From: a virus
IMG/VR virus record: IMGVR_UViG_3300036791_000462
Coordinates: 32,001 to 96,000 of that record
Length of the DNA: 64,000 nt
Strand: one strand, 5' to 3'
This document shows, in pieces, positions 5,860 through 51,899 of this stretch. Every line of letters starts with the position of its first letter. The first letter of the stretch is position 1. The notes under the pieces are model-generated. The model saw nothing but the letters and a program-made list of their open reading frames with translations, was not told the DNA's origin and searched no databases. The position numbers and the translations under genes were made by a program.

Positions 5860-6369
5860 TCAGGCGGCGGACTTCGCTGCCGTCTTCGCGTGCGACGCGG
5901 CCTTCTTCGCTTCCCACTCGGCGAGCGCCTTGGCGGCTGCGGCGCGGACCTCGGGGCTGACCTTGCCGCGTCCGCTGGCCCAGTTCTTCATCACCCCGAT
6001 AGCCATCTGGATCGCCTGAGATTCGGAGTGTCCGGACTTGATGATGCCTTTGGCGACATTCTGGATATATGCCGGGAGTCCTCCGACGCGGGCGACCCAG
6101 TTGCTCGTTTTGCTCGTGCTGAACGGTGACGGGGTGACCGAATACCCGGCGGTCTTCTCCGACTCCTCAAGCTGCGTCTCAGTTGGCAGCCACTCCTCGG
6201 CTTGCTCATCGAGCGCGGCCCACGCCGCTTCCTGGCTCTCGACGTTGGCTTTCAGCGCACGCAGGTGCGCCATCGCCTTCTCGTGACTGGAGTGGTGTTT
6301 GACGACCTCGCCCGTGTCGGAGCGGATCACGTCGTTGCCCTTGCAGGTGTATGGCATAGCCCCGCTCAT
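5860..6369 (-). CDS. Probable head-associated protein
   Basis: [20 protein letters not shown]...[17 protein letters not shown] helical module; LEES site; basic C-terminus. Confidence 0.5.
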
Positions 6370-6905
6370 TTCCGTGCGTTTTCAATGCAGGTGTAGATCT
6401 TGACCTTCCCGCCCGGCTGGTTGATCACCAAGATGCCCGGCGAGTAGCCGGTGTAGCACGAGAAGCTGCCAGCCGGACCCTGTACGCCCTGCGGTCCCGT
6501 ATCGCCCTTCGGACCCTGCGAGCCCGCCGGACCGGTTGCGCCCTGCGGGCCGGTAGCACCAGTCGGGCCTGCTGGCCCCGTTGGACCCGTCCCACCCGTA
6601 CCGCCGCCACCAGCAGGACCAGTCGCTCCCGTGTCGCCCTTCGGTCCGGCCACGCCCTGTGGTCCCTGTAGCCCGACGCCGCCGGTTACGCCCGCTGGTC
6701 CGGTCGCCCCCGTCGCGCCAGTGTGCCCTGCTGGCCCTGCCGGTCCCGTGTGACCTCGCGGGCCTCGCGGACCTGGCGACAGGCTCACCGTCACCGTTCT
6801 CGTTGGTGGTGGCGCGGAGCTTGTCACCGCTGCTGCTGTTGCGAGCCCGCCTGCGGACACAAACGCCGCACCTCCGACCACCGTGAACACGCGGCTAGCT
6901 TTCAT
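6366..6905 (-). CDS. Collagen-like protein with N-terminal signal/TM segment
   Basis: About 30 Gly-X-Y triplets, hydrophobic N-terminus, two Cys in C-terminal cap. Confidence 0.85.
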
Positions 6906-7155
6906 CTGGGGGCTCCACGTCGATGCCCAAGTCGAGCTTCAGGTCGTTCAACTCCATCTTCACCTTGTGCAGTTCCACCGAGTATTCCTCGGCCTCAGCG
7001 CGAGCTTCCCTCAGATGCTCCAAACACGCTTCGTGATCTTCGCTGCGGCTCCTGCGTAACGCCATGATGGTCGATGCGATACCGCCGGTGGCGGTCACGA
7101 GGGCTGCGAGCCCCAGCAGCGTCGGCTGGTCGATTGCGGCGATGGCCCAGACCAT
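6895..7155 (-). CDS. Membrane protein, TM plus coiled coil (holin-like / lysis accessory)
   Basis: One N-terminal TM, then heptad coiled coil; overlaps collagen gene. Confidence 0.55.
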
Positions 7156-7169
7156 GCACCAACATCACA

Positions 7170-7544
7170 TCAGGCGGTAGCGGTGGCCCAGCCCGCCGGG
7201 AGCTTGCCGGTCAACCCGAGCGCCTTCGCGCGCTTGATGATGAACGCCTTGATCGCACCCTTGTCATCGGGGTTGCCACGCCCGAACGCCTGGATCGCGT
7301 TCGCCAGGTCGGCGGGCGTTTCGATTGGGTAGCGCCCGCCGGGCATCGCGTGACCCTTCTTCTCCAGCGCCGCGCGCCTCTTGGTGGTGAACAGCCGCTC
7401 CTCCAACTGGCGGCGAAGCACCCGCTCGCGTGCGTACGCGCGGACGAACTCCTGCGAACTTGCAGCCGTCTTGCGCAGGTGGGTGGCTTCCTCAAGCTGA
7501 TACCACGGGTGCGCTGCTACGGGTGCTTCTTCGAGCACGGTCAT
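7170..7544 (-). CDS. Head-associated small protein (AMPGGRYPI, DUF6582-like module)
   Basis: GHAMPGGRYPIETPADLANAIQAFGR...KAFIIKRAKALG...LP..W; repeated LEE sites. Confidence 0.6.
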   Translation of the reverse strand: MTVLEEAPVAAHPWYQLEEATHLRKTAASSQEFVRAYARERVLRRQLEERLFTTKRRAALEKKGHAMPGGRYPIETPADLANAIQAFGRGNPDDKGAIKAFIIKRAKALGLTGKLPAGWATATA

Positions 7545-7546
7545 GT

Positions 7547-9385
7547 CTACCTCCTCGTGCTGGACGCAAGCCCTACGGTCAGCTTGCCTGTCAGGTCGCC
7601 GCGCCGCTGCTGGATGGCCTGAACCTTCTGGCGCTCCTCATTGGTCGCGCCGCTGCCCGGCTGCAGGCGTTTCTGTAGCTGCGCGCCACCGAGATCCTCC
7701 AGATGCACCAGGTGAATCGGAACGTGCGTCAGCCCGCGCTCCTGCGCGACCTGGAACGTGGAGTTGCCGTCGAGGATCCGCATCGTCCCGTCAGGCTCAC
7801 GGCGGACCATCAGCGGCTTGCGTTTATCCATCTCTCCGCGCTTGGCCTTGTCCATGAACCCTGCCGCTTTCGCGACGTGCTCGGCGGTGTCCTGTCGCGA
7901 CGGGGTGAGATCGCGGACACGCACCAAGTCGTGCGGCTTGCGCAGGTCGAAGTAGTCGGATGCCATCTCCGCTCCGTGCGCTGCGCTACCACCCCCGCTC
8001 GGTTTTAGGCGGTTGAACACCTCCGACCATTTCCCGCCGCGCCCCCTCGGGTGCAGGCGAGCGTTCCAGAACGCCTCAGCCAGCCTGGCGCGGAGCACAC
8101 GTTCGCGAGCAAGGGCGCGAGTGAACTCCGTGCCGTTGGCGGCTGCCTTCCGGGCGATGATCGCCTCGGCCAGCGCCGTCACCGCTGGCGCGAGATCACG
8201 CCCATCCAGGATCGTCGTGTCCGCCGGTGGCGGTGGCTGCTCGGCACGCCCGTCCGGGATCGTGAGGTCCGGCAGGTCACGAACACCGGTCCGGGTCCAG
8301 ATCGGCAGGTCGCAGTCGGGTGTCTGCTCGCGCCCGTCGGGGATCGACATTGACGGGTCGCCGCCGTAACCGAACGCGACGGTTGTTTCCTCCAGGTCCG
8401 GTTGCTGGGCTGGGATCTGCGCGGAGGTCGCAACCTGCACCTTCCCCGTCCGGTGCGGAGTTGCCCCACCTTTCTTCGGCGCGGTGAGCTTCATCTTCGG
8501 CCCGCCGCCGCCGCTGGGTTTGTGCGCCTTCCCGCGTTCGAGCACCGCGACCTCGCCCGGCAGCGGAGCTTGTGCTCGCGCGATCTTCGCGGCCTCCTGC
8601 TTCGCTAGCTGTTTCTTGAGTGCCTTCACGGCCCTGAGTGCTCCTCTCGCGTTCTTCTGGGCGGTTCTCGCGGTACGTGCCGCTGCTTGCGCGTCCCTGT
8701 GCGCGATGGCGCTGCCGCCGACGGCGGCGGCTTTGGCTTCCTTCGCGAGCTTCTCGGCGTTCGCGGCAGCGGTCTGTGCCTGCGCGGCGTCGTGGCGTGC
8801 CCACATCAGGTTTGTGTCGTGTCCCGTCTGACGCGCTTCCTTGGACGTTTGCTGCCCGGCGGCGATGGCGGCTTTCGTTTCACCGGAGACGGTCGTGTTC
8901 GCCTGCGCCTGCGCGGGAGTGATCTTCGCGACGGACGCTCTCGACGTGCTCGACTTCGAGGTGGACCTGCTGGTGGACCTGGACTTCTTGGGGGCGTACG
9001 GGCCGATGCCCCGCATGCGCTGCACCTGATCGAGCGTCTGCGGCGGCGGGTTCTGCAGCAGCGTCATCGTCGCGGCGTCCACGCCCATGCTCGGACTCAG
9101 CCCGTAGCGCTTCTGGAACGTCTGCACCGCCTGGGTGGTCGCCGGACCGTACTGGCCGTCCACCGGCACCTTGAACCCAAGCTCGTTCAGGCGCTGCTGC
9201 AGTTGCGCGGTCGTCTGATCAGGGCCGCTGGCGGTGTACCCGTCGCCGTGTTTGACGATCCACTGCCCACCACGCCCGCGTGGGTGAAGCTGATTGAAGT
9301 TCCCACCGGCCGTCCCACCGGTGCGGCTCTGCGGTTTGGTCTGCGGTTTGGGTGGCGGAGGCGGCTTCGGTGAGATCAGCGGCAC
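7547..9385 (-). CDS. HPRGRGG-tagged multidomain protein: peptidoglycan-binding domain + Lys/Ala-rich linker + ParB/Srx-like domain
   Basis: LQQRLNELGF...DGQYGPATTQAVQTFQ (PG_binding_1); two HPRGRGG motifs; PLMVRR...RILDGNSTF...GLTHVPI. Confidence 0.75.
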   Translation of the reverse strand: MPLISPKPPPPPKPQTKPQSRTGGTAGGNFNQLHPRGRGGQWIVKHGDGYTASGPDQTTAQLQQRLNELGFKVPVDGQYGPATTQAVQTFQKRYGLSPSMGVDAATMTLLQNPPPQTLDQVQRMRGIGPYAPKKSRSTSRSTSKSSTSRASVAKITPAQAQANTTVSGETKAAIAAGQQTSKEARQTGHDTNLMWARHDAAQAQTAAANAEKLAKEAKAAAVGGSAIAHRDAQAAARTARTAQKNARGALRAVKALKKQLAKQEAAKIARAQAPLPGEVAVLERGKAHKPSGGGGPKMKLTAPKKGGATPHRTGKVQVATSAQIPAQQPDLEETTVAFGYGGDPSMSIPDGREQTPDCDLPIWTRTGVRDLPDLTIPDGRAEQPPPPADTTILDGRDLAPAVTALAEAIIARKAAANGTEFTRALARERVLRARLAEAFWNARLHPRGRGGKWSEVFNRLKPSGGGSAAHGAEMASDYFDLRKPHDLVRVRDLTPSRQDTAEHVAKAAGFMDKAKRGEMDKRKPLMVRREPDGTMRILDGNSTFQVAQERGLTHVPIHLVHLEDLGGAQLQKRLQPGSGATNEERQKVQAIQQRRGDLTGKLTVGLASSTRR

Positions 9386-16749: not shown

Positions 16750-19604
16750 GCCACCCTCGGGCGCAGCACCCCGGTGAGCCGATTGCCCCGACGGGCGCGG
16801 TTACCTGTTGGTTCCTGGGTGCCTGCCAGGATCGCGTTGGTGCGCGCGGTCAGGCCCTTCAGTTCTCTGGCGGCAGCGCGCTGCTCGTCGCGGGTGCCGA
16901 GAATCACCTCGTGCGGGTCCGCGACGAGCCCGCCGTGCTGGGACACGCCCCACGCCCGGTCGTAGTACGGCTTCGCGGCTTTCTGCAGGTCCGCGACAAC
17001 CTGTTTCTCGGCCGGTGTCGGCTCGCGTTTCTGCTGTTTGGCAAGCTCCTCGACCTGGCGTTCCAACTCGTAGTAGTGGTGGCCCGGCCCGATCTCCTTC
17101 GTCCACCACAGCGGGTTGGTGTTGACCTGAAGCTCGGTCGTCAGCCCACCGGCGGACTCGGGTGCGCGCAGGATCAGGGTCGTGTCGCCGTACCCGTTCT
17201 CCGTCGAGCGGTTCGACCCGTTCGCGTCCACCAGACGGCGTTTCATCCGCTCCACCGTCCAGCCCTTCGCAGCGACCTGCTGGCGGATCGTCGCGAGCGT
17301 GTGTTCGAGATCCTGCGCGGTCGGGACGGTCACCGTCGCACGAACCGCGTCGTGCAGGTCAGAGAAGTCGTTCGCGTGACCCAGCGACGCCTGCTTCGCA
17401 ATCGCTCGCTTCAGGCTCTTGATCGGCGCGACGATCAGGTGCGGCTGGTCCATGTTGTGCTGGATGTCCTGCCCGGTCTGCTGGAAGCTCTTGCCCTGCG
17501 AAATGTCGTGCTTGGTCCCGCCAAGCTGGTCGATCACGCCGGTGCCGATGTCGAGGATCTGCTGCAACGCCGGAAGCGTTTTCGACTCGCCTCGCGCGAG
17601 AAGCTCCTGCGGGTCGCTGACCGGCTGTTTCTTCTTCTCCCCGTCGCCGGTGATCCCGAACTGGTCGCGCATCGACTGAAACTCCTTCGAGACGTTGCGG
17701 CCCACACGACGCTCGACCTCGGGGTTCGTTCGGGTCGTCTGCCCGCCCGTTTTCCAGACGCCGCGCTTCGGGCCTGCCACGTCACGCACGCCAGGTAGCT
17801 GCTCGTGCGCCTTGGCGAGCACCTGCGCGTACGCGCGGTCGGCAGGGATCGCGTAGTCCGAACCGTCGAGCTTCTTGTCCTCCGCGCCCGACGGGAAGCT
17901 GATCTTGCCGTCCGGCAGCGCTTGGGCTACGAGCCTCGGTGGGTTCGGTCGGCCGGACGCTTCGTCCAACCCCTGGTTGGTGTCGTACACGTGGACTCGC
18001 GCGCCCATCTGCGCCGCCTTGTCCATCACGCCGGGGATCGTCGCGGACACGTCGCGGTGGACCGCGCGCATGATCACGTCGGGGATCATGCGACCGCCCG
18101 CCTCGGCGTTCGCACGCGCCTTCTCGGCACGGTCCTTCGCGCGGCTGATCGCGTCGTTCGTCGGCGTGCTGACGTAGGAGATGCGCGGGTTGACGTACCC
18201 CGCGTCGGTGAACGACTTGACGCGCTTGGCGACCTCGTCGGCGTTCGTGTTCGTGATCCCGTCCACGATCACGTTCAGCTTGCGCTTCTGCGCCTCCGCC
18301 ATCACGTGCTGCGCGATGTCCCACGCCTCGGCGTACACCCGCAGGTTCGCCTCCGGGTCATCCGCCGAGCTTGCCTGAAACTCGGGTAGCTCCGCCTTGA
18401 TCAGGTCCGGGTCGAGGAGCAGCGCGTTCTGAGGCAGCGCATCCGGGTCGTCAGGGTGCTTCTGGCTGAGCATGTGCAACAGCCCGCCCTTCCCGGCCGC
18501 GTACCCACCGCCGGTGAACATCACGGTCGGCTTGCCGGACGGCGCTTTCAGATACGAGTTCGTTTTGCTGAGCCCCCGGTCGTTGCCCTTCGCGTCCAGG
18601 TTGTGCTCGCGCAGCATCATGTCGATGATCCGCGCGTGCAGCTTCGCGCGGGACTGGTCCCACGTGCCGTCCGGGTTGCGGTACATCTCAGCGGTCGTCG
18701 GCCTGGTGGTCGCATCCTCCGCGTACGCCAACAGCGTTTTCTGGGACACGCGGCCCGCATCGTTGAAGTGAACCTCCGCTTGGCTCAGATCATGCTCACC
18801 GCGAACCTGCCCAGCGGCCGGGGTTGAGCGTGACAGCCCGACGCGACGCACCCGGCGGCCGATCCGCTTCTCCAGCGACTTGGTGCGCCGTTCGTACAGC
18901 GCCGACTGGCCGTGCGCGAGCGTCTGCTTACGGTCGTGGATCGCGTTGGTGTGCGCCTGCTCCTTCGCGAAGTGCTCCGCCGCCGCCGCGTGGTCACCAC
19001 GTTTCGCTGCCGCGTTGCCCGCCTTGCGTTCCTGGGTCGCGAGCCGCTCCAGGCGCTGGCGTCCAGCGAGGTGAACCTTCTGCGCGTCGGTGGCCTCCTG
19101 TTTGAACTGGCGCAGGCTCATCGCCTCCGGGAGCGTGCCGCCAGTCTGCACCGCCTTACCCGCAGGATGCGGTTCGGGGGTCGCGAACACGGGAAACTTC
19201 CCGCCTCTGACGCCAGCCCGGCGGCCCTTCAGCACCTTGATCTCGCCCGGCATCCGCTCCGTCGGTGGGCGCTGGATCGTTTTCAGACGCGGGCCTGAGT
19301 GAACCGCTTTCGCGATCCGGTTCTGCGGCACGACCTCGTGGGAGCGGAGCTTCGCGTCGGCAAACGCGCCGCCGAGCTTGTCGATCCACTTCCCGCCACG
19401 GCCGCGCGGGTGCAGCACCTCGGTCCAGTCAACCTCCTGCAGGCCGGTGAGCGCCAGGTCGAGCACGCCTGCCTGCTCCCACAGGTCAAGTTCGGTGTGC
19501 GACACCCAGCCGATCCGGTCCAGATCGTCGGTGGTGGCGAGCCCCCGGCGCAAGAACTCCTCTCGGAGGGTGGCGTTCTCGCGCGCAATGGTGGCAGCCT
19601 CCAT
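16746..19604 (-). CDS. HPRGRGG-tagged fusion: Zeta-toxin-like P-loop kinase + RelA/SpoT-like synthetase
   Basis: FTGGGYAAGKG, LLDPDLIK, NVIVDG (Zeta); IKSLKRAIAK, DAVRAT, NGYGD, ELQVNT, GHHYYE (RSH synthetase motifs). Confidence 0.8.
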   Translation of the reverse strand: MEAATIARENATLREEFLRRGLATTDDLDRIGWVSHTELDLWEQAGVLDLALTGLQEVDWTEVLHPRGRGGKWIDKLGGAFADAKLRSHEVVPQNRIAKAVHSGPRLKTIQRPPTERMPGEIKVLKGRRAGVRGGKFPVFATPEPHPAGKAVQTGGTLPEAMSLRQFKQEATDAQKVHLAGRQRLERLATQERKAGNAAAKRGDHAAAAEHFAKEQAHTNAIHDRKQTLAHGQSALYERRTKSLEKRIGRRVRRVGLSRSTPAAGQVRGEHDLSQAEVHFNDAGRVSQKTLLAYAEDATTRPTTAEMYRNPDGTWDQSRAKLHARIIDMMLREHNLDAKGNDRGLSKTNSYLKAPSGKPTVMFTGGGYAAGKGGLLHMLSQKHPDDPDALPQNALLLDPDLIKAELPEFQASSADDPEANLRVYAEAWDIAQHVMAEAQKRKLNVIVDGITNTNADEVAKRVKSFTDAGYVNPRISYVSTPTNDAISRAKDRAEKARANAEAGGRMIPDVIMRAVHRDVSATIPGVMDKAAQMGARVHVYDTNQGLDEASGRPNPPRLVAQALPDGKISFPSGAEDKKLDGSDYAIPADRAYAQVLAKAHEQLPGVRDVAGPKRGVWKTGGQTTRTNPEVERRVGRNVSKEFQSMRDQFGITGDGEKKKQPVSDPQELLARGESKTLPALQQILDIGTGVIDQLGGTKHDISQGKSFQQTGQDIQHNMDQPHLIVAPIKSLKRAIAKQASLGHANDFSDLHDAVRATVTVPTAQDLEHTLATIRQQVAAKGWTVERMKRRLVDANGSNRSTENGYGDTTLILRAPESAGGLTTELQVNTNPLWWTKEIGPGHHYYELERQVEELAKQQKREPTPAEKQVVADLQKAAKPYYDRAWGVSQHGGLVADPHEVILGTRDEQRAAARELKGLTARTNAILAGTQEPTGNRARRGNRLTGVLRPRVA

Positions 19605-36401: not shown

Positions 36402-36651
36402 CGACTACCGCTGTTTGGATCCGGACGATCAGTTCGGAGGACTCGACGGCGGTCAGCCCGTCGGAGCGGACGATGTCGCGGGCTAGCTGCCCGAGGCGGC
36501 GTTCTTTGTCCTCGTCGGACTCTTGTATCTGGAGTGCTTCGGTCACCAGCGCGGCCCATTCCTCAAGCTCGCTCATTGTCTGTGCAAGCTACCACCGCAG
36601 GCTCACGGAAGGCGCTATGAAATGCCGCTGTTTGCGGGAAGTTCCCCCCGT

Positions 36652-36700
36652 ACACGCTCACGTTGTGTGCTATGTTCTTAGTGCGGGTGTGGGAGCCCGC
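36652..36700 (+). promoter_or_regulatory. Promoter repeat in plus orientation, upstream of a structured region and tRNA
   Basis: CACGTTGTGTGCTATGTT CTTAGTGCGGG..CCCGC matches repeat consensus. Confidence 0.65.
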
Positions 36701-37048
36701 GAGAAGGCCCCGGCGGGACGCACAAAGGCCTCCCAGCCCAATGGCTCGCCGGGTCGCCCCGATGGGATTCCCTTCGGAGTGGAGATCCGCCGCGACGCTC
36801 ATCCGCGAGCGGCGCAGCAGATCCCGGAGGGTCCGGACTCGGCTTCCGGACGGGGCACCGCAGAAGTGTGTGACGTGGGCATCCTTCAGGCGTGGAGAGC
36901 CGAGGATTGTGCCCGGAACGCCAGCGTCCGGTGTATCGAGGGGTTGATCTCCCTTGACGGGACGCAGCGACCACGGACGAATTGCCAGGAGGAGGGATCC
37001 TCGTTGTGCTGGTGAGTGAGGGCCGGTGGGTGTCCGCGTCGAGATCTT

Positions 37049-37121
37049 GCCGCTGTCGTCTAGCAGGTCAGGACGCCGCCCTCTCAAGGCGGAAGCACGG
37101 GTTCGAATCCCGTTGGCGGTG
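37049..37121 (+). tRNA. tRNA-Glu (anticodon CTC), CCA not encoded
   Basis: Acceptor GCCGCTG/TGGCGGT, D-arm GTCTAGCAGGTCAGGAC, anticodon arm CCGCC-CTCTCAA-GGCGG, T-arm ACGGG-TTCGAAT-CCCGT. Confidence 0.9.
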
Positions 37122-37124
37122 CTC

Positions 37125-37517
37125 TTACAGCGTTGCGCCTGCTGTCGCGAGGATGTTGCGCAGCGTGCCTGTCGGGATCGAGCCGGTGTGCGTTGGGACG
37201 ATCACGCGCCTGCCGCCGTCGGGGTGTTCGAACACGGCGTGGCTGCCTTTCTGGCCGACTCGTTTGAACCCGGCTTTGCGGAGCATGCGGTGGATCTGCT
37301 TGGCTGTCATCGCTGGCAGCTTCGAGGGTGGGTGCGCTGCGTGGATCACGCCTGAGAGCGTGAACTCGCCGCTGCGGTTACGCGGGTGCAGGATCTCGTC
37401 CCACGCGAAGTGCGACGGGTCGCGACGTTCGAGGATCAGGGTCGCGGCGCGCATCGCTACCGGTCGGCTCAGGCCGCGCGCTTCGTGGATCGCGACCTGG
37501 TCCCAGTAGCCGGGCAT
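37125..37517 (-). CDS. hicA: HicA-family mRNA interferase with N-terminal HPR-tag extension
   Basis: MLRKAGFKRVGQKGSHAVFEHP...VIVPTH...IPTGTLRNIL; N-terminal WDEILHPRNRSGEF. Confidence 0.85.
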   Translation of the reverse strand: MPGYWDQVAIHEARGLSRPVAMRAATLILERRDPSHFAWDEILHPRNRSGEFTLSGVIHAAHPPSKLPAMTAKQIHRMLRKAGFKRVGQKGSHAVFEHPDGGRRVIVPTHTGSIPTGTLRNILATAGATL

Positions 37518-37759
37518 GGCCGGATCGTAAGGTGGTCTGGCGACCCGGTCACAGATCGAACCGGGTCGCCTGGTTTTTGCGGAGGCTCTGGCGGGATCTG
37601 TCCCTCAGGTTGGGTCGCCGCCCTCCTCGTGCTCTACGTCTCTAACCGTGCTCGCGGGCTCGGGTGTGACATCCACCTCGTAACGTCTGACGTGTGTTGT
37701 AGGTTCCCGCGTGGCACGGCTGGTCTGAGCGCCCTCGCTGAAAATGCGGGGGCGCTGCC

Positions 37760-49805: not shown

Positions 49806-51899
49806 TCAGTGCTTGCCGTTGCCGTTGGCTGCCGCTTCGGCGAGCATCTGGTCCACGACCTCGCCGATCTCCTCGTCCCAGAAGCGCATGATCTCCTCGA
49901 CACGTTCGGGGCTCAGGCCCTCGTCGGCTGCGGCCTGCTGCATCTGCTGTCCCTGTCCCTGGTTGCCCTGGTACTGAGACGAGAAGCCCTGAGCGCCGTA
50001 CGGGTTCATCTCGCCGTCGGGGCCTTGCCCCGGCACCATCGCCTGCGGCGCGAACGGATTCGGCCCGGACGGAATCAACGGTGGTGCTGGCCCTCCGCCG
50101 CCGCCGGGTTGCGCGTCGGTGGGGGGAGGTCCGGCCATCTGCTGGGCCATCAGCGGATCGACATACCCCTCAGGAAGGATTCGCTCGACGGCGGCGGCCG
50201 GGTCGGCGAGTTCGAGCCCCTGGCCGAGCGCGACAGCGAGCAGCGTCCGGCTTAGCTCAAGGTTGGTGTTGTTCGGATCGAACGTGCGCGCCAGGTTCGC
50301 GATGCTGGTTATCAGGTCGGACATCTGCCGCTTGAGCGGCGAGGGCATCGAGAACTCGTAGCTGAGGTTGCGTTCCGTGTCCTCCTCATCCTCCGTCTGG
50401 CCGTGGTAGGCCTCAGTCAGGCCCTGCGCGCCGTAGACGGCGGTATCCATCGGCTCGGTCATCGAGGACGGCGGCTCTGTCTGTGCGGGTGACGGTGGCG
50501 TCGCGCCCTCCCCGCCGGGCACCTGCTCGCCGGGCTGCTTGGACTTCAGCTTCGCGCGTTCCTCCGGGGTCAGTTGCGTCGGGAGCGTCCCGGCGTCCAC
50601 CGCCTTCTGGATCACCCGGTCTGTGAACGTGCGAAACAGGCCCTCGAACAGTTCCTGGAACGCCTCGACCTTCTTCATCACCGGCAACTCCAGCGACGCA
50701 GCGGTCGCAAGGTTCGCGTTTGACTGGTCGCCGAGATAGTGCTGCGGCCACGTTCCGGCGGAGATCTGGGAGCGGATCATCTGCGCGTCCTGGGACGCTT
50801 GCGCCGCCTGGGTGGAGACGGAGAACGGTTCGGTCGTGACGCCCGCTGATTCGTTCAGCATCGACGCCGGTCGCGGCCCTGGTGTGATCACCCCCGCGTC
50901 CGGCGAGTCAATCGACGTGGCAGCGAGCGTCGAGGTGCGCGACAGTGCCTGCGCGGCGATAGCCGCGACCTGCTGCGGAGAGCCCTTGACAGTTCTCCTC
51001 ATGATGAACGCTGCCGCTGCCTGGGTCATGTCCACCCGTGCGGCCATGAAGTCGTTCAGCGCCGCCATCCACTTGACCATTCGGCGCATCGCGGGGATGC
51101 CGAACACCTGCTCGGTGCCCCGGTTGATCGCGATGTGGTAGACGAGCCCTTCGCCGAGCTTCTCCGGTGGGCACGGCGGATCTTCGGTCAGCAGCAACCC
51201 TGTTTCGGAGTCGGTCGCGGCGAGCGACTGGTAATACTGGACGACGGGCTGACCGCCCTGCTGCAGGCTCGCCGCCGACTTCAGGCTGACGCGGTCCATC
51301 GTGTAGTCCCACTGGTATTCACGTCTGCGGGCGACGTAGTAGAGGACGCGCAGGCGGTTCTGGGAATCGCGGACGGCGTCCTCCACGAGATCGTGGTTGA
51401 GCATCCCGAGCTTGACCTTCCCGTCGTCGCCGTTCTCGAAGAACAGGATGAACAGGTTCGACTGAAGCACCAGGTCGGTGCAGAGCGCCACCTGGGCGGG
51501 GAACGTCGTCAGCGCCGCCATGTTGTCCGGATCCGACCACGCCTCGTCCACGACTTCCTGCACCTTCTCGTCCACGCACTTGGGCTTCGGGACACCGCGA
51601 CCAAAGATGAACTGGCAGGAGATGTCCACGTTCGCCCCGGCGACGGGATCCTGAATCCAGACCATCCGGGCCTGCGCGGCCATCTTCCGGCGCTCGATAG
51701 CCTTGACCTCCTGCGGCTGCCCGCCGATCTGGTCAAGGACGTAGTAGCCGAGCATGTCGAGTTCCTTCTGCATCGCCCGGCGCTCGACATCGCTGGCCTC
51801 AAGCAGTTGCAGGCGGTCCTGGTCAACGACCGTCTTGCCGGTGCGCTGCTCGACGGCCTCCTGGAGCTTGCCGATCAGGCCGCTACTTCCCCGCGCCAT
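49806..51899 (-). CDS. Portal protein
   Basis: 697 aa; DPVAGANVD...FGRGV, PQHYLGDQSNANLATAASLELP; position between terminase and MuF; Pro/Gly/Gln-rich tail. Confidence 0.82.
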   Translation of the reverse strand: MARGSSGLIGKLQEAVEQRTGKTVVDQDRLQLLEASDVERRAMQKELDMLGYYVLDQIGGQPQEVKAIERRKMAAQARMVWIQDPVAGANVDISCQFIFGRGVPKPKCVDEKVQEVVDEAWSDPDNMAALTTFPAQVALCTDLVLQSNLFILFFENGDDGKVKLGMLNHDLVEDAVRDSQNRLRVLYYVARRREYQWDYTMDRVSLKSAASLQQGGQPVVQYYQSLAATDSETGLLLTEDPPCPPEKLGEGLVYHIAINRGTEQVFGIPAMRRMVKWMAALNDFMAARVDMTQAAAAFIMRRTVKGSPQQVAAIAAQALSRTSTLAATSIDSPDAGVITPGPRPASMLNESAGVTTEPFSVSTQAAQASQDAQMIRSQISAGTWPQHYLGDQSNANLATAASLELPVMKKVEAFQELFEGLFRTFTDRVIQKAVDAGTLPTQLTPEERAKLKSKQPGEQVPGGEGATPPSPAQTEPPSSMTEPMDTAVYGAQGLTEAYHGQTEDEEDTERNLSYEFSMPSPLKRQMSDLITSIANLARTFDPNNTNLELSRTLLAVALGQGLELADPAAAVERILPEGYVDPLMAQQMAGPPPTDAQPGGGGGPAPPLIPSGPNPFAPQAMVPGQGPDGEMNPYGAQGFSSQYQGNQGQGQQMQQAAADEGLSPERVEEIMRFWDEEIGEVVDQMLAEAAANGNGKH

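Follow-up and report, generated by a model that had tools for sequence, protein, structure and literature searches.

A phage HicA RNase with a widespread header peptide, a candidate effector for delivery with the viral DNA

The hicA gene described here belongs to an uncultured tailed phage and is probably a virus-delivered weapon rather than a leftover toxin–antitoxin gene. Its 130-residue product consists of an N-terminal leader, a 14-residue peptide (here called the header tag), a short linker and a HicA RNase domain. Tags of the same family are present on other effector proteins of this phage, several of which are encoded next to the portal gene. We hold with moderate confidence that hicA is a one-module member of this header-tagged set, which would be loaded into the head and delivered together with the DNA.

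The hicA locus and its genomic setting

The IMG/VR record comprises 107,110 bp and is ~86% complete as judged by CheckV. The window, which is the whole stretch of DNA analysed, is 64,000 nucleotides long and corresponds to bases 32001–96000 of the record. The G+C content is 66%, and the minus strand holds nearly all genes. The phage has a contractile tail, with capsid and sheath genes in the left arm of the record. The window contains the terminase, the portal, four large tagged genes, two endolysins and then hicA, giving a gene order that runs from the portal-adjacent tagged array through the lysis cassette to hicA. The main features are as follows (window coordinates).

37049–37122, plus strand: tRNA-Glu(CUC) gene (ARAGORN; Rfam RF00005, 60.9 bits)
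37125–37517, minus strand: hicA coding sequence from the ORF list, ATG start, 130 aa, encoding leader, header tag and HicA RNase domain
37137–37310, minus strand: HicA RNase domain, aa 70–127 (Pfam, PDB sequence matches, Foldseek)
37239–37247, minus strand: Gly-Ser-His, aa 91–93, the G-x-H catalytic motif of HicA
37362–37403, minus strand: header tag W-D-E-x-L-H-P-R-x-R-x-G-x-F, aa 39–52 (gapless alignment to the seven other tags of this genome)
37404–37517, minus strand: N-terminal leader, aa 1–38, predicted helical, kept in all full-length homologues
37524–37529, minus strand: -10 hexamer TACGAT, 6 nt before the ATG (read from the sequence)
37547–37552, minus strand: -35-like GTGACC, 17 nt upstream of the -10 hexamer (read from the sequence, uncalled by the consensus scan)
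37539–37579, plus strand: terminator-like element, an 11-bp GC-rich hairpin (37539–37549 / 37560–37570) followed by TGGTTTTTG
49806–51899: portal gene, within the window

The record is arranged in an unusual way. One block holds the terminase and portal together with the effector array and the lysis genes. A distance of ~50 kb separates this block from the genes for capsid, sheath and tail, which share its strand, and the interval contains replication-type genes and two further tagged genes. Between the tRNA-Glu gene and the next minus-strand gene, a stretch of ~470 nt (36577–37048) has no convincing ORF, no Rfam match and no consensus promoter. It is situated where the late/lysis block borders on the small early-type genes. 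The context of hicA was compared in three IMG/VR loci and one metagenome locus (L002–L004 and L007), referred to below as the four related loci.

The HicA RNase domain

HicA_toxin (PF07927) is the sole Pfam domain of the protein and covers residues 73–127 (E 3.5e-17, 62.7 bits against a cut-off of 27). The protein also matches PHROG 353, annotated as 'toxin' (E 1.4e-17), and its HicA domain matches PDB entries 1whz, 4c26, 6g26 and 9svk by sequence. His93 aligns with the position of the catalytic His24 of Burkholderia pseudomallei HicA (4c26 is the H24A variant) and is invariant in all homologues. In the AF2 model the domain folds as helix 72–81, strands 85–90, 93–97 and 104–108, and helix 116–126, with pLDDT ~87, which is the dsRBD-like α-β-β-β-α arrangement. 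Foldseek places this model close to 1whz (TM 0.79) and to 6g26_E (TM 0.88). For the whole protein the pTM is 0.44 and the pLDDT of the linker is below 50, and the orientation of the leader relative to the domain is unreliable in this model.

Judged by these matches, the RNase domain is intact and its catalytic histidine is in place, in agreement with a sequence-only reading of this DNA that had named the protein a HicA with a GSH motif. The same reading had described an N-terminal extension with IHEA, ILE and the tag. These elements are found at residues 10–13, 28–30 and 39–52 (Trp39 to Phe52), all within the N-terminal 69 residues.

The header tag

The H-P-R motif is found eight times in the record, each time inside the window. 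The seven copies outside hicA read HPRGRGG followed by Lys, Glu or Gln and then Trp, and they are located near the N-terminus of their proteins or between domains. The tagged proteins of this phage carry PG-binding, ParB-like, Zeta toxin, DUF7178, GNAT, ART and cytidylate kinase domains, and one of 891 aa has no recognised domain. The copies differ in synonymous codons; selection therefore acts on the peptide, and a DNA-level repeat or recombination handle was rejected on the same grounds.

When 1.84 billion proteins were searched with a profile of the eight copies, 227 cluster representatives matched at E ≤ 1e-3. The tag-bearing matches are mostly long, up to 7407 aa, with 1–16 tags per protein. 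The consensus of 384 external tags is aromatic-acidic-E-x-[L/K]-H-P-R-[G/D/N]-[R/E]-x-G-[K/R]-[F/W]. The HicA tag agrees with the pattern [WFY]-[DE]-E-x-[LK]-H-P-R-x-x-x-G-x-[FW] wherever the pattern fixes a residue, and it ends in Phe, which most of the 384 tags have at the last position. An HMM was built from 377 tags, all of them from other genomes and none from a HicA protein. It gives the hicA ORF 27.8 bits (E 1e-7 among 1301 six-frame ORFs), while the next non-tag ORF reaches 10.5 bits. These data support the HicA tag as a true member of the family found on the other effector proteins of the phage, and the 227 protein clusters point to the header as a widespread junction peptide. The tag had been called a variant. 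This description stands relative to the copies in this genome and falls away against the global consensus, to which the HicA tag conforms.

Conservation over the 384 tags is confined to the His, Pro, Arg, Gly and aromatic residues. The Gly and basic residues of the P-R-G-R core are not kept in this set, and the idea that the core binds DNA like an AT-hook was therefore dropped. The tag has an AF2 pLDDT of ~50 and is predicted to be disordered, as expected for a linear motif. The spacing from tag to domain is 7–25 aa ahead of Cmk, PG_binding, PolyA_pol, HicA and ART domains.

The Pfam domains seen repeatedly in a set of 77 tagged proteins are PG_binding_1 (17), Zeta_toxin (8), GNAT (5) and ADP-ribosyltransferase (4), with cytidylate kinase, DUF7178, NUDIX and HicA also present. 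Portal_Mu occurs once (E 5.5e-41), in what is a portal protein with a header tag. Longer tagged proteins add the combinations NUDIX with ART and NUDIX with Zeta, a 2H phosphoesterase and a CCA-adding enzyme. In one protein, named 'SPP1 gp7 family head morphogenesis protein' at its source (P0032), Phage_Mu_F (429–512) is followed by a tag (539), an ART-PolyVal domain (573–695) and then four tags. In our phage the four tagged genes come directly after the portal, and the Zeta protein matches a PHROG annotated as 'minor head protein'. A cultured carrier is Gordonia phage GodonK, whose gp67 (MK620899.1; L006 11950–16389) is a hypothetical protein of 1479 aa encoded right after the portal, with a tag at aa 28.

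Nothing was found by searching the PDB with the tag profile, or by megablast and tblastn against GenBank phages with the locus and with the N-terminus of an 868-aa protein. A full-text literature search for the motif strings returned nothing relevant, and no published description or name of the motif was found. In two relatives, hicA is divergent from a gene for a 531-aa protein that carries two H-P-H variants of the tag (His for Arg). One of these is locus L003, with the 531-aa gene at 6356–7951 (minus strand) and hicA at 7994–8411 (plus strand); its HicA has H-R-R in place of H-P-R.

Tag, linker and HicA domain as one module

HicA directly follows a tag in three of the best 150 tag-bearing proteins.

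P0027: 1198 aa, HicA at 1019–1076, tags at 994 and 1108
P0042: 1971 aa, HicA right after a tag
P0074: 239 aa, tags at 37 and 156, HicA at 66–123

BLASTP aligns residues 38–129 of the window protein with residues 31–124 of P0074 and 988–1076 of P0027 at 45% identity (E ~1e-21). Tag, linker and the complete HicA domain are all covered by this collinear alignment, and a multiple alignment agrees. The linker is 17 aa here (the tag ends at aa 52–53 and HicA starts at aa 70) and 15–19 aa in P0027 and P0074. Since tag, linker and HicA are collinear with the embedded modules and 45% identical to them, the whole module was inherited, rather than tagged independently. On this alignment evidence, the tag, ~17 residues and HicA form a shared module that is older than the stand-alone state of the gene. 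The proposal that a divergent tag reflects independent acquisition is rejected, both on these alignments and on the 27.8-bit fit to the family. The HicA modules within polyvalent proteins do not have the 38-residue leader of the stand-alone gene.

P0027 and P0042, which come from other phage contigs (92 and 129 kb), also contain full CCA-adding modules (PolyA_pol, HD and tRNA_NucTran2_2). HicA therefore travels with other RNA-directed activities, and the pairing of HicA with CCA-adding modules suggests RNA-directed attack and repair.

Leader, start codon and promoter

Eleven homologues of 110–147 aa share the architecture of the HicA protein. Nine of them match its first 68 residues at 63–94% identity, every one carrying HicA, and the other two were found with the HicA domain as query. 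Replacements in the leader are conservative throughout the alignment, and the sites I/V/L-H-E-A/S and I/L-x-E are kept. AF2 predicts leader helices at residues 4–13 and 18–30 with pLDDT ~75. The G+C content at the three codon positions of the leader is 0.71/0.51/0.85, a pattern that is shared with the other genes of the phage. Compared with L002, the closest DNA relative, the leader has a dN/dS of 0.35 and the domain one of 0.24. A search for the leader on longer proteins found no relative; the leader is specific to the stand-alone HicA family, and the idea that it heads other cargo was dropped. A search of the ESM Atlas with the leader found nothing.

A -10 hexamer is located exactly 6 nt before the ATG or GTG in five divergent loci (the window, L002, L003, L004 and L007), reading TACGAT and once TAGACT. 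A -10 box 6 nt before the start is the geometry of leaderless actinobacterial mRNA. The layout indicates that the hicA mRNA is leaderless and made from its own putative host-type promoter, as had been proposed from the window sequence; the other four loci extend that proposal. The layout TANNNT 5–7 nt upstream is found at 13 ORF starts in the record, against ~2 expected from a rough estimate based on base composition. In the window these starts are 9385, 19905, 37517, 40833, 49248, 49777 and 52418, and also 45042. The genes concerned include the tagged genes at 9385 and 49248 and a 494-aa gene upstream of the capsid gene, and several leaderless starts have nTGAc near -35, similar to the GTGACC of hicA. 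The phage thus seems to make wide use of leaderless mRNAs.

At the level of sequence, it is shown that the leader is translated and that the start is the ATG at 37517 rather than the internal Met, because eleven homologues keep the leader, its GC3 is 0.85, its dN/dS is 0.35 and the -10 layout recurs in five loci. The strongest support for the upstream start is the promoter layout.

Possible role of the tagged HicA

In the reading that we prefer, the header would act as a short linear motif, taking its module into the procapsid and/or to processing there, along with the portal-adjacent effector array. HicA would accompany the DNA into the next host. There it would cut host RNA at an early stage of infection, as a means of host shut-off or to blunt an RNA-dependent defence. 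HicB would be needless in this scheme, because the producing cell is already committed to lysis and the target is the host. Capsid loading, cleavage and injection of HicA are steps that we infer.

Several observations go against delivery. The hicA gene comes after the lysis genes and outside the portal-adjacent array, and its promoter is of a generic host type. In the record, the S78 prohead protease has no match; S77 (PF03420) has none either, but a control for PF03420 likewise matched nowhere, which makes the S77 search uninformative. The best hit for MuF (PF04233) in the record is 13.4 bits, below the Pfam threshold. Cleavage at hydrophobic-x-Glu sites is weakly founded, as only 25% of the 384 tags have such a site upstream, and the HicA family lacks one there.

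The main rival is an intracellular phage RNase that is never packaged and that would cut host mRNA (shut-off) or phage mRNA (turnover), comparable to T4 RegB. The header would then be a relic, or a processing or partner-binding motif, from a polyvalent ancestor. The separate leaderless promoter, the position apart from the portal array, the predicted disorder of the tag region and the lack of a detected protease or MuF domain in the record are all in favour of such an enzyme. However, tag and leader are under purifying selection across ~11 homologues, unlike a relic, and the same promoter class is present on the tagged genes at 9385 and 49248 and on the gene upstream of the capsid gene. We regard a purely intracellular role as possible and on balance rather unlikely.

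The missing antitoxin

A search of the 107,110-bp record (~86% complete) for the HicB families PF15919 and PF05534 returned nothing at E ≤ 1. The apparent lack of a HicB neighbour, first noted within the window, thus extends to the rest of the record. As the record is incomplete, a hicB could lie in its missing part or in the host. The neighbours of hicA are the endolysin cassette, a 65-aa ORF without a family match and the tRNA. The 65-aa upstream ORF was rejected as a hidden HicB, as it has no family match and is not kept beside hicA in relatives. Across the four related loci no conserved partner or immunity gene was found next to hicA, and the neighbours differ. A search of the record for an integrase found none; a prophage-addiction role is therefore unlikely, and the phage does not look temperate.

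The N-terminal 69 residues might themselves be a built-in antitoxin, folded onto the RNase until a protease removes them, whether inside the capsid or inside the target cell. The conserved, helical leader keeps the I/V/L-H-E-A/S and I/L-x-E sites, and no antitoxin was found in trans, all of which would suit this role. Against it, AF2 gives no confident contact between leader and domain (pTM 0.44, linker pLDDT < 50), and the HicA modules in polyvalent proteins have no leader. We consider a built-in antitoxin improbable, and it overlaps with the delivery reading more than it excludes it.

The convergent tRNA gene and antisense transcription

The tRNA-Glu gene, called by both ARAGORN and Rfam, is convergent with hicA and separated by 2–3 nt from its stop codon (37125–37127), in line with the earlier observation that this stop adjoins the tRNA 3' end. 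It is one of two tRNAs in the record, and no tRNA was found near hicA in the four related loci. ARAGORN also calls a tRNA-Pro(GGG) of 100 nt outside the window (record positions 17366–17465, minus strand), which overlaps a coding ORF at 17135–17521; this call is over-long and may be spurious.

The terminator-like element is located 452 nt past the tRNA and overlaps the -35 of hicA. The minimum free energy of the folded segment (−25.5 kcal/mol) is not unusual compared with shuffled sequences (z −1.58; 14 of 200 fold as well). Runs of five T are rare on the plus strand, with only 10 in the whole 107 kb, and the element has one of them at 37574. The 10-nt loop of the hairpin kept the element out of the consensus scan, and the same scan shows no sigma-70-like promoter for tRNA-Glu. 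Given the 11-bp hairpin and the rare T5 run 452 nt beyond the tRNA, the earlier suggestion that tRNA read-through yields RNA antisense to hicA is plausible.

Such a transcript of ~450 nt would cover hicA and its promoter. The gene could then be an unconventional toxin–antitoxin or self-limiting module with an RNA neutraliser, in which silencing works by antisense pairing or by transcriptional interference. In favour of this module, just 2 nt separate the tRNA end from the hicA stop, the hairpin and T5 run are found just past the hicA promoter, and this hairpin does not occur upstream of hicA in the relatives that have no tRNA. On the other side, no tRNA lies within reach of hicA in the four related loci, and antisense control is therefore not the general solution of the family. 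The lack of a sigma-70-like tRNA promoter in the scan also speaks against this module, as does the lack of a detected integrase, with which an addiction role is unlikely. An RNA-neutralised module has little likelihood in our judgement, and there is an equally slim chance that antisense transcription is a lineage-specific extra layer, which is the most it would be.

It is hardly credible that the true product is a canonical 61-aa HicA from Met70 with the upstream frame untranslated: Met70 is invariant and equals the first residue of canonical HicA proteins, but the upstream frame is open with coding-type GC3 and dN/dS below 1, the protein is conserved at 63–95% over the leader, no Shine-Dalgarno sequence precedes Met70, in five loci the upstream start follows a -10 box at a distance of 6 nt, and Met70 is also kept within polyvalent proteins, where it is unable to be a start. 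The internal start (MTAKQ), under which the tag would not be translated, was rejected for these reasons.

Significance

Returning to delivery with the phage DNA, we tentatively propose a more specific version, in which the 14-residue header may be a general, portable signal for loading and/or releasing any module behind it by way of the phage head, with HicA as its minimal natural cargo and, in this phage, its expression further gated by the tRNA antisense; this would be the first antitoxin-free, virion-delivered HicA mRNA interferase. If the header does load or release head proteins, the 130-aa HicA is the smallest natural test object, with one assayable RNase and one tag. The gene would show a toxin of a toxin–antitoxin system reused as a phage-delivered effector. 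HicA and CCA-adding enzymes are added to the repertoire of polyvalent and MuF-type phage proteins. Gordonia phage GodonK, as a cultured carrier of the tag, makes the idea testable at the bench and is suited to virion proteomics.

Comparison with known systems

The polyvalent proteins of phages and conjugative elements were described by Iyer, Burroughs, Anand, de Souza and Aravind (Iyer et al. 2017, PMC5512222), who predict that they are delivered with the invading DNA and processed into single units. The resemblance is clear in the very long proteins in which the tag occurs 2–16 times and which string together ART, Zeta, NUDIX, GNAT, 2H and PG-binding domains. In contrast, hicA has one effector domain rather than two or more unrelated ones, and the modules of this phage are mostly separate genes, each with its own header. 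The text of PMC5512222 contains neither 'HicA' nor 'HPR' (0 occurrences of each).

Variable toxin domains on a head-associated carrier characterise the MuF polymorphic toxins, which temperate phages encode (Jamet et al. 2017, PMC5576092). Two likenesses are seen: P0032 joins Phage_Mu_F to tagged effector modules, and the tagged array of this phage adjoins the portal. However, the HicA protein has no MuF domain and none was detected above threshold in the record, no immunity gene was found beside hicA (the downstream feature is the convergent tRNA), and no integrase was found in this record, so that the phage does not look temperate. Neither HicA nor the junction motif is mentioned in PMC5576092. 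In their domain repertoire and gene position, the tagged proteins correspond to polyvalent and MuF-type head proteins (PMC5512222, PMC5576092).

HicA also serves at the C-terminus of S8-type and RHS polymorphic toxins, as their toxin domain (PMC9424270); this is a precedent for HicA as a delivered toxin module that has left the toxin–antitoxin context. Those toxins are secreted, bacterial and accompanied by immunity genes, whereas the window HicA is a phage protein with a phage-specific header. In the type II HicAB systems the HicA fold is the same and the G-x-H histidine is likewise in place; the phage protein differs in having no detected HicB and no two-gene operon, and in its added N-terminal extension of 69 aa.

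Capsid-targeted internal proteins include T4 IPI-III, with an N-terminal targeting sequence that is cut by gp21, and DarA and DdrB of P1. As in those proteins, which are packed in the head and injected, a short N-terminal signal stands on unrelated cargo. The T4-type leader is removed by an S77 prohead protease at hydrophobic-x-Glu sites, and the HicA leader has candidate sites of this kind. Unlike the T4 signal, the header is unrelated in sequence and is also found internally and in repeats. Pre-toxin junction motifs such as VENN of CdiA and PxxxxDPxGL of Rhs are similar in that a short conserved peptide marks the border before a variable toxin module. Those motifs occur once per protein, at the border of core and toxin, whereas the header repeats with each module and heads stand-alone genes.
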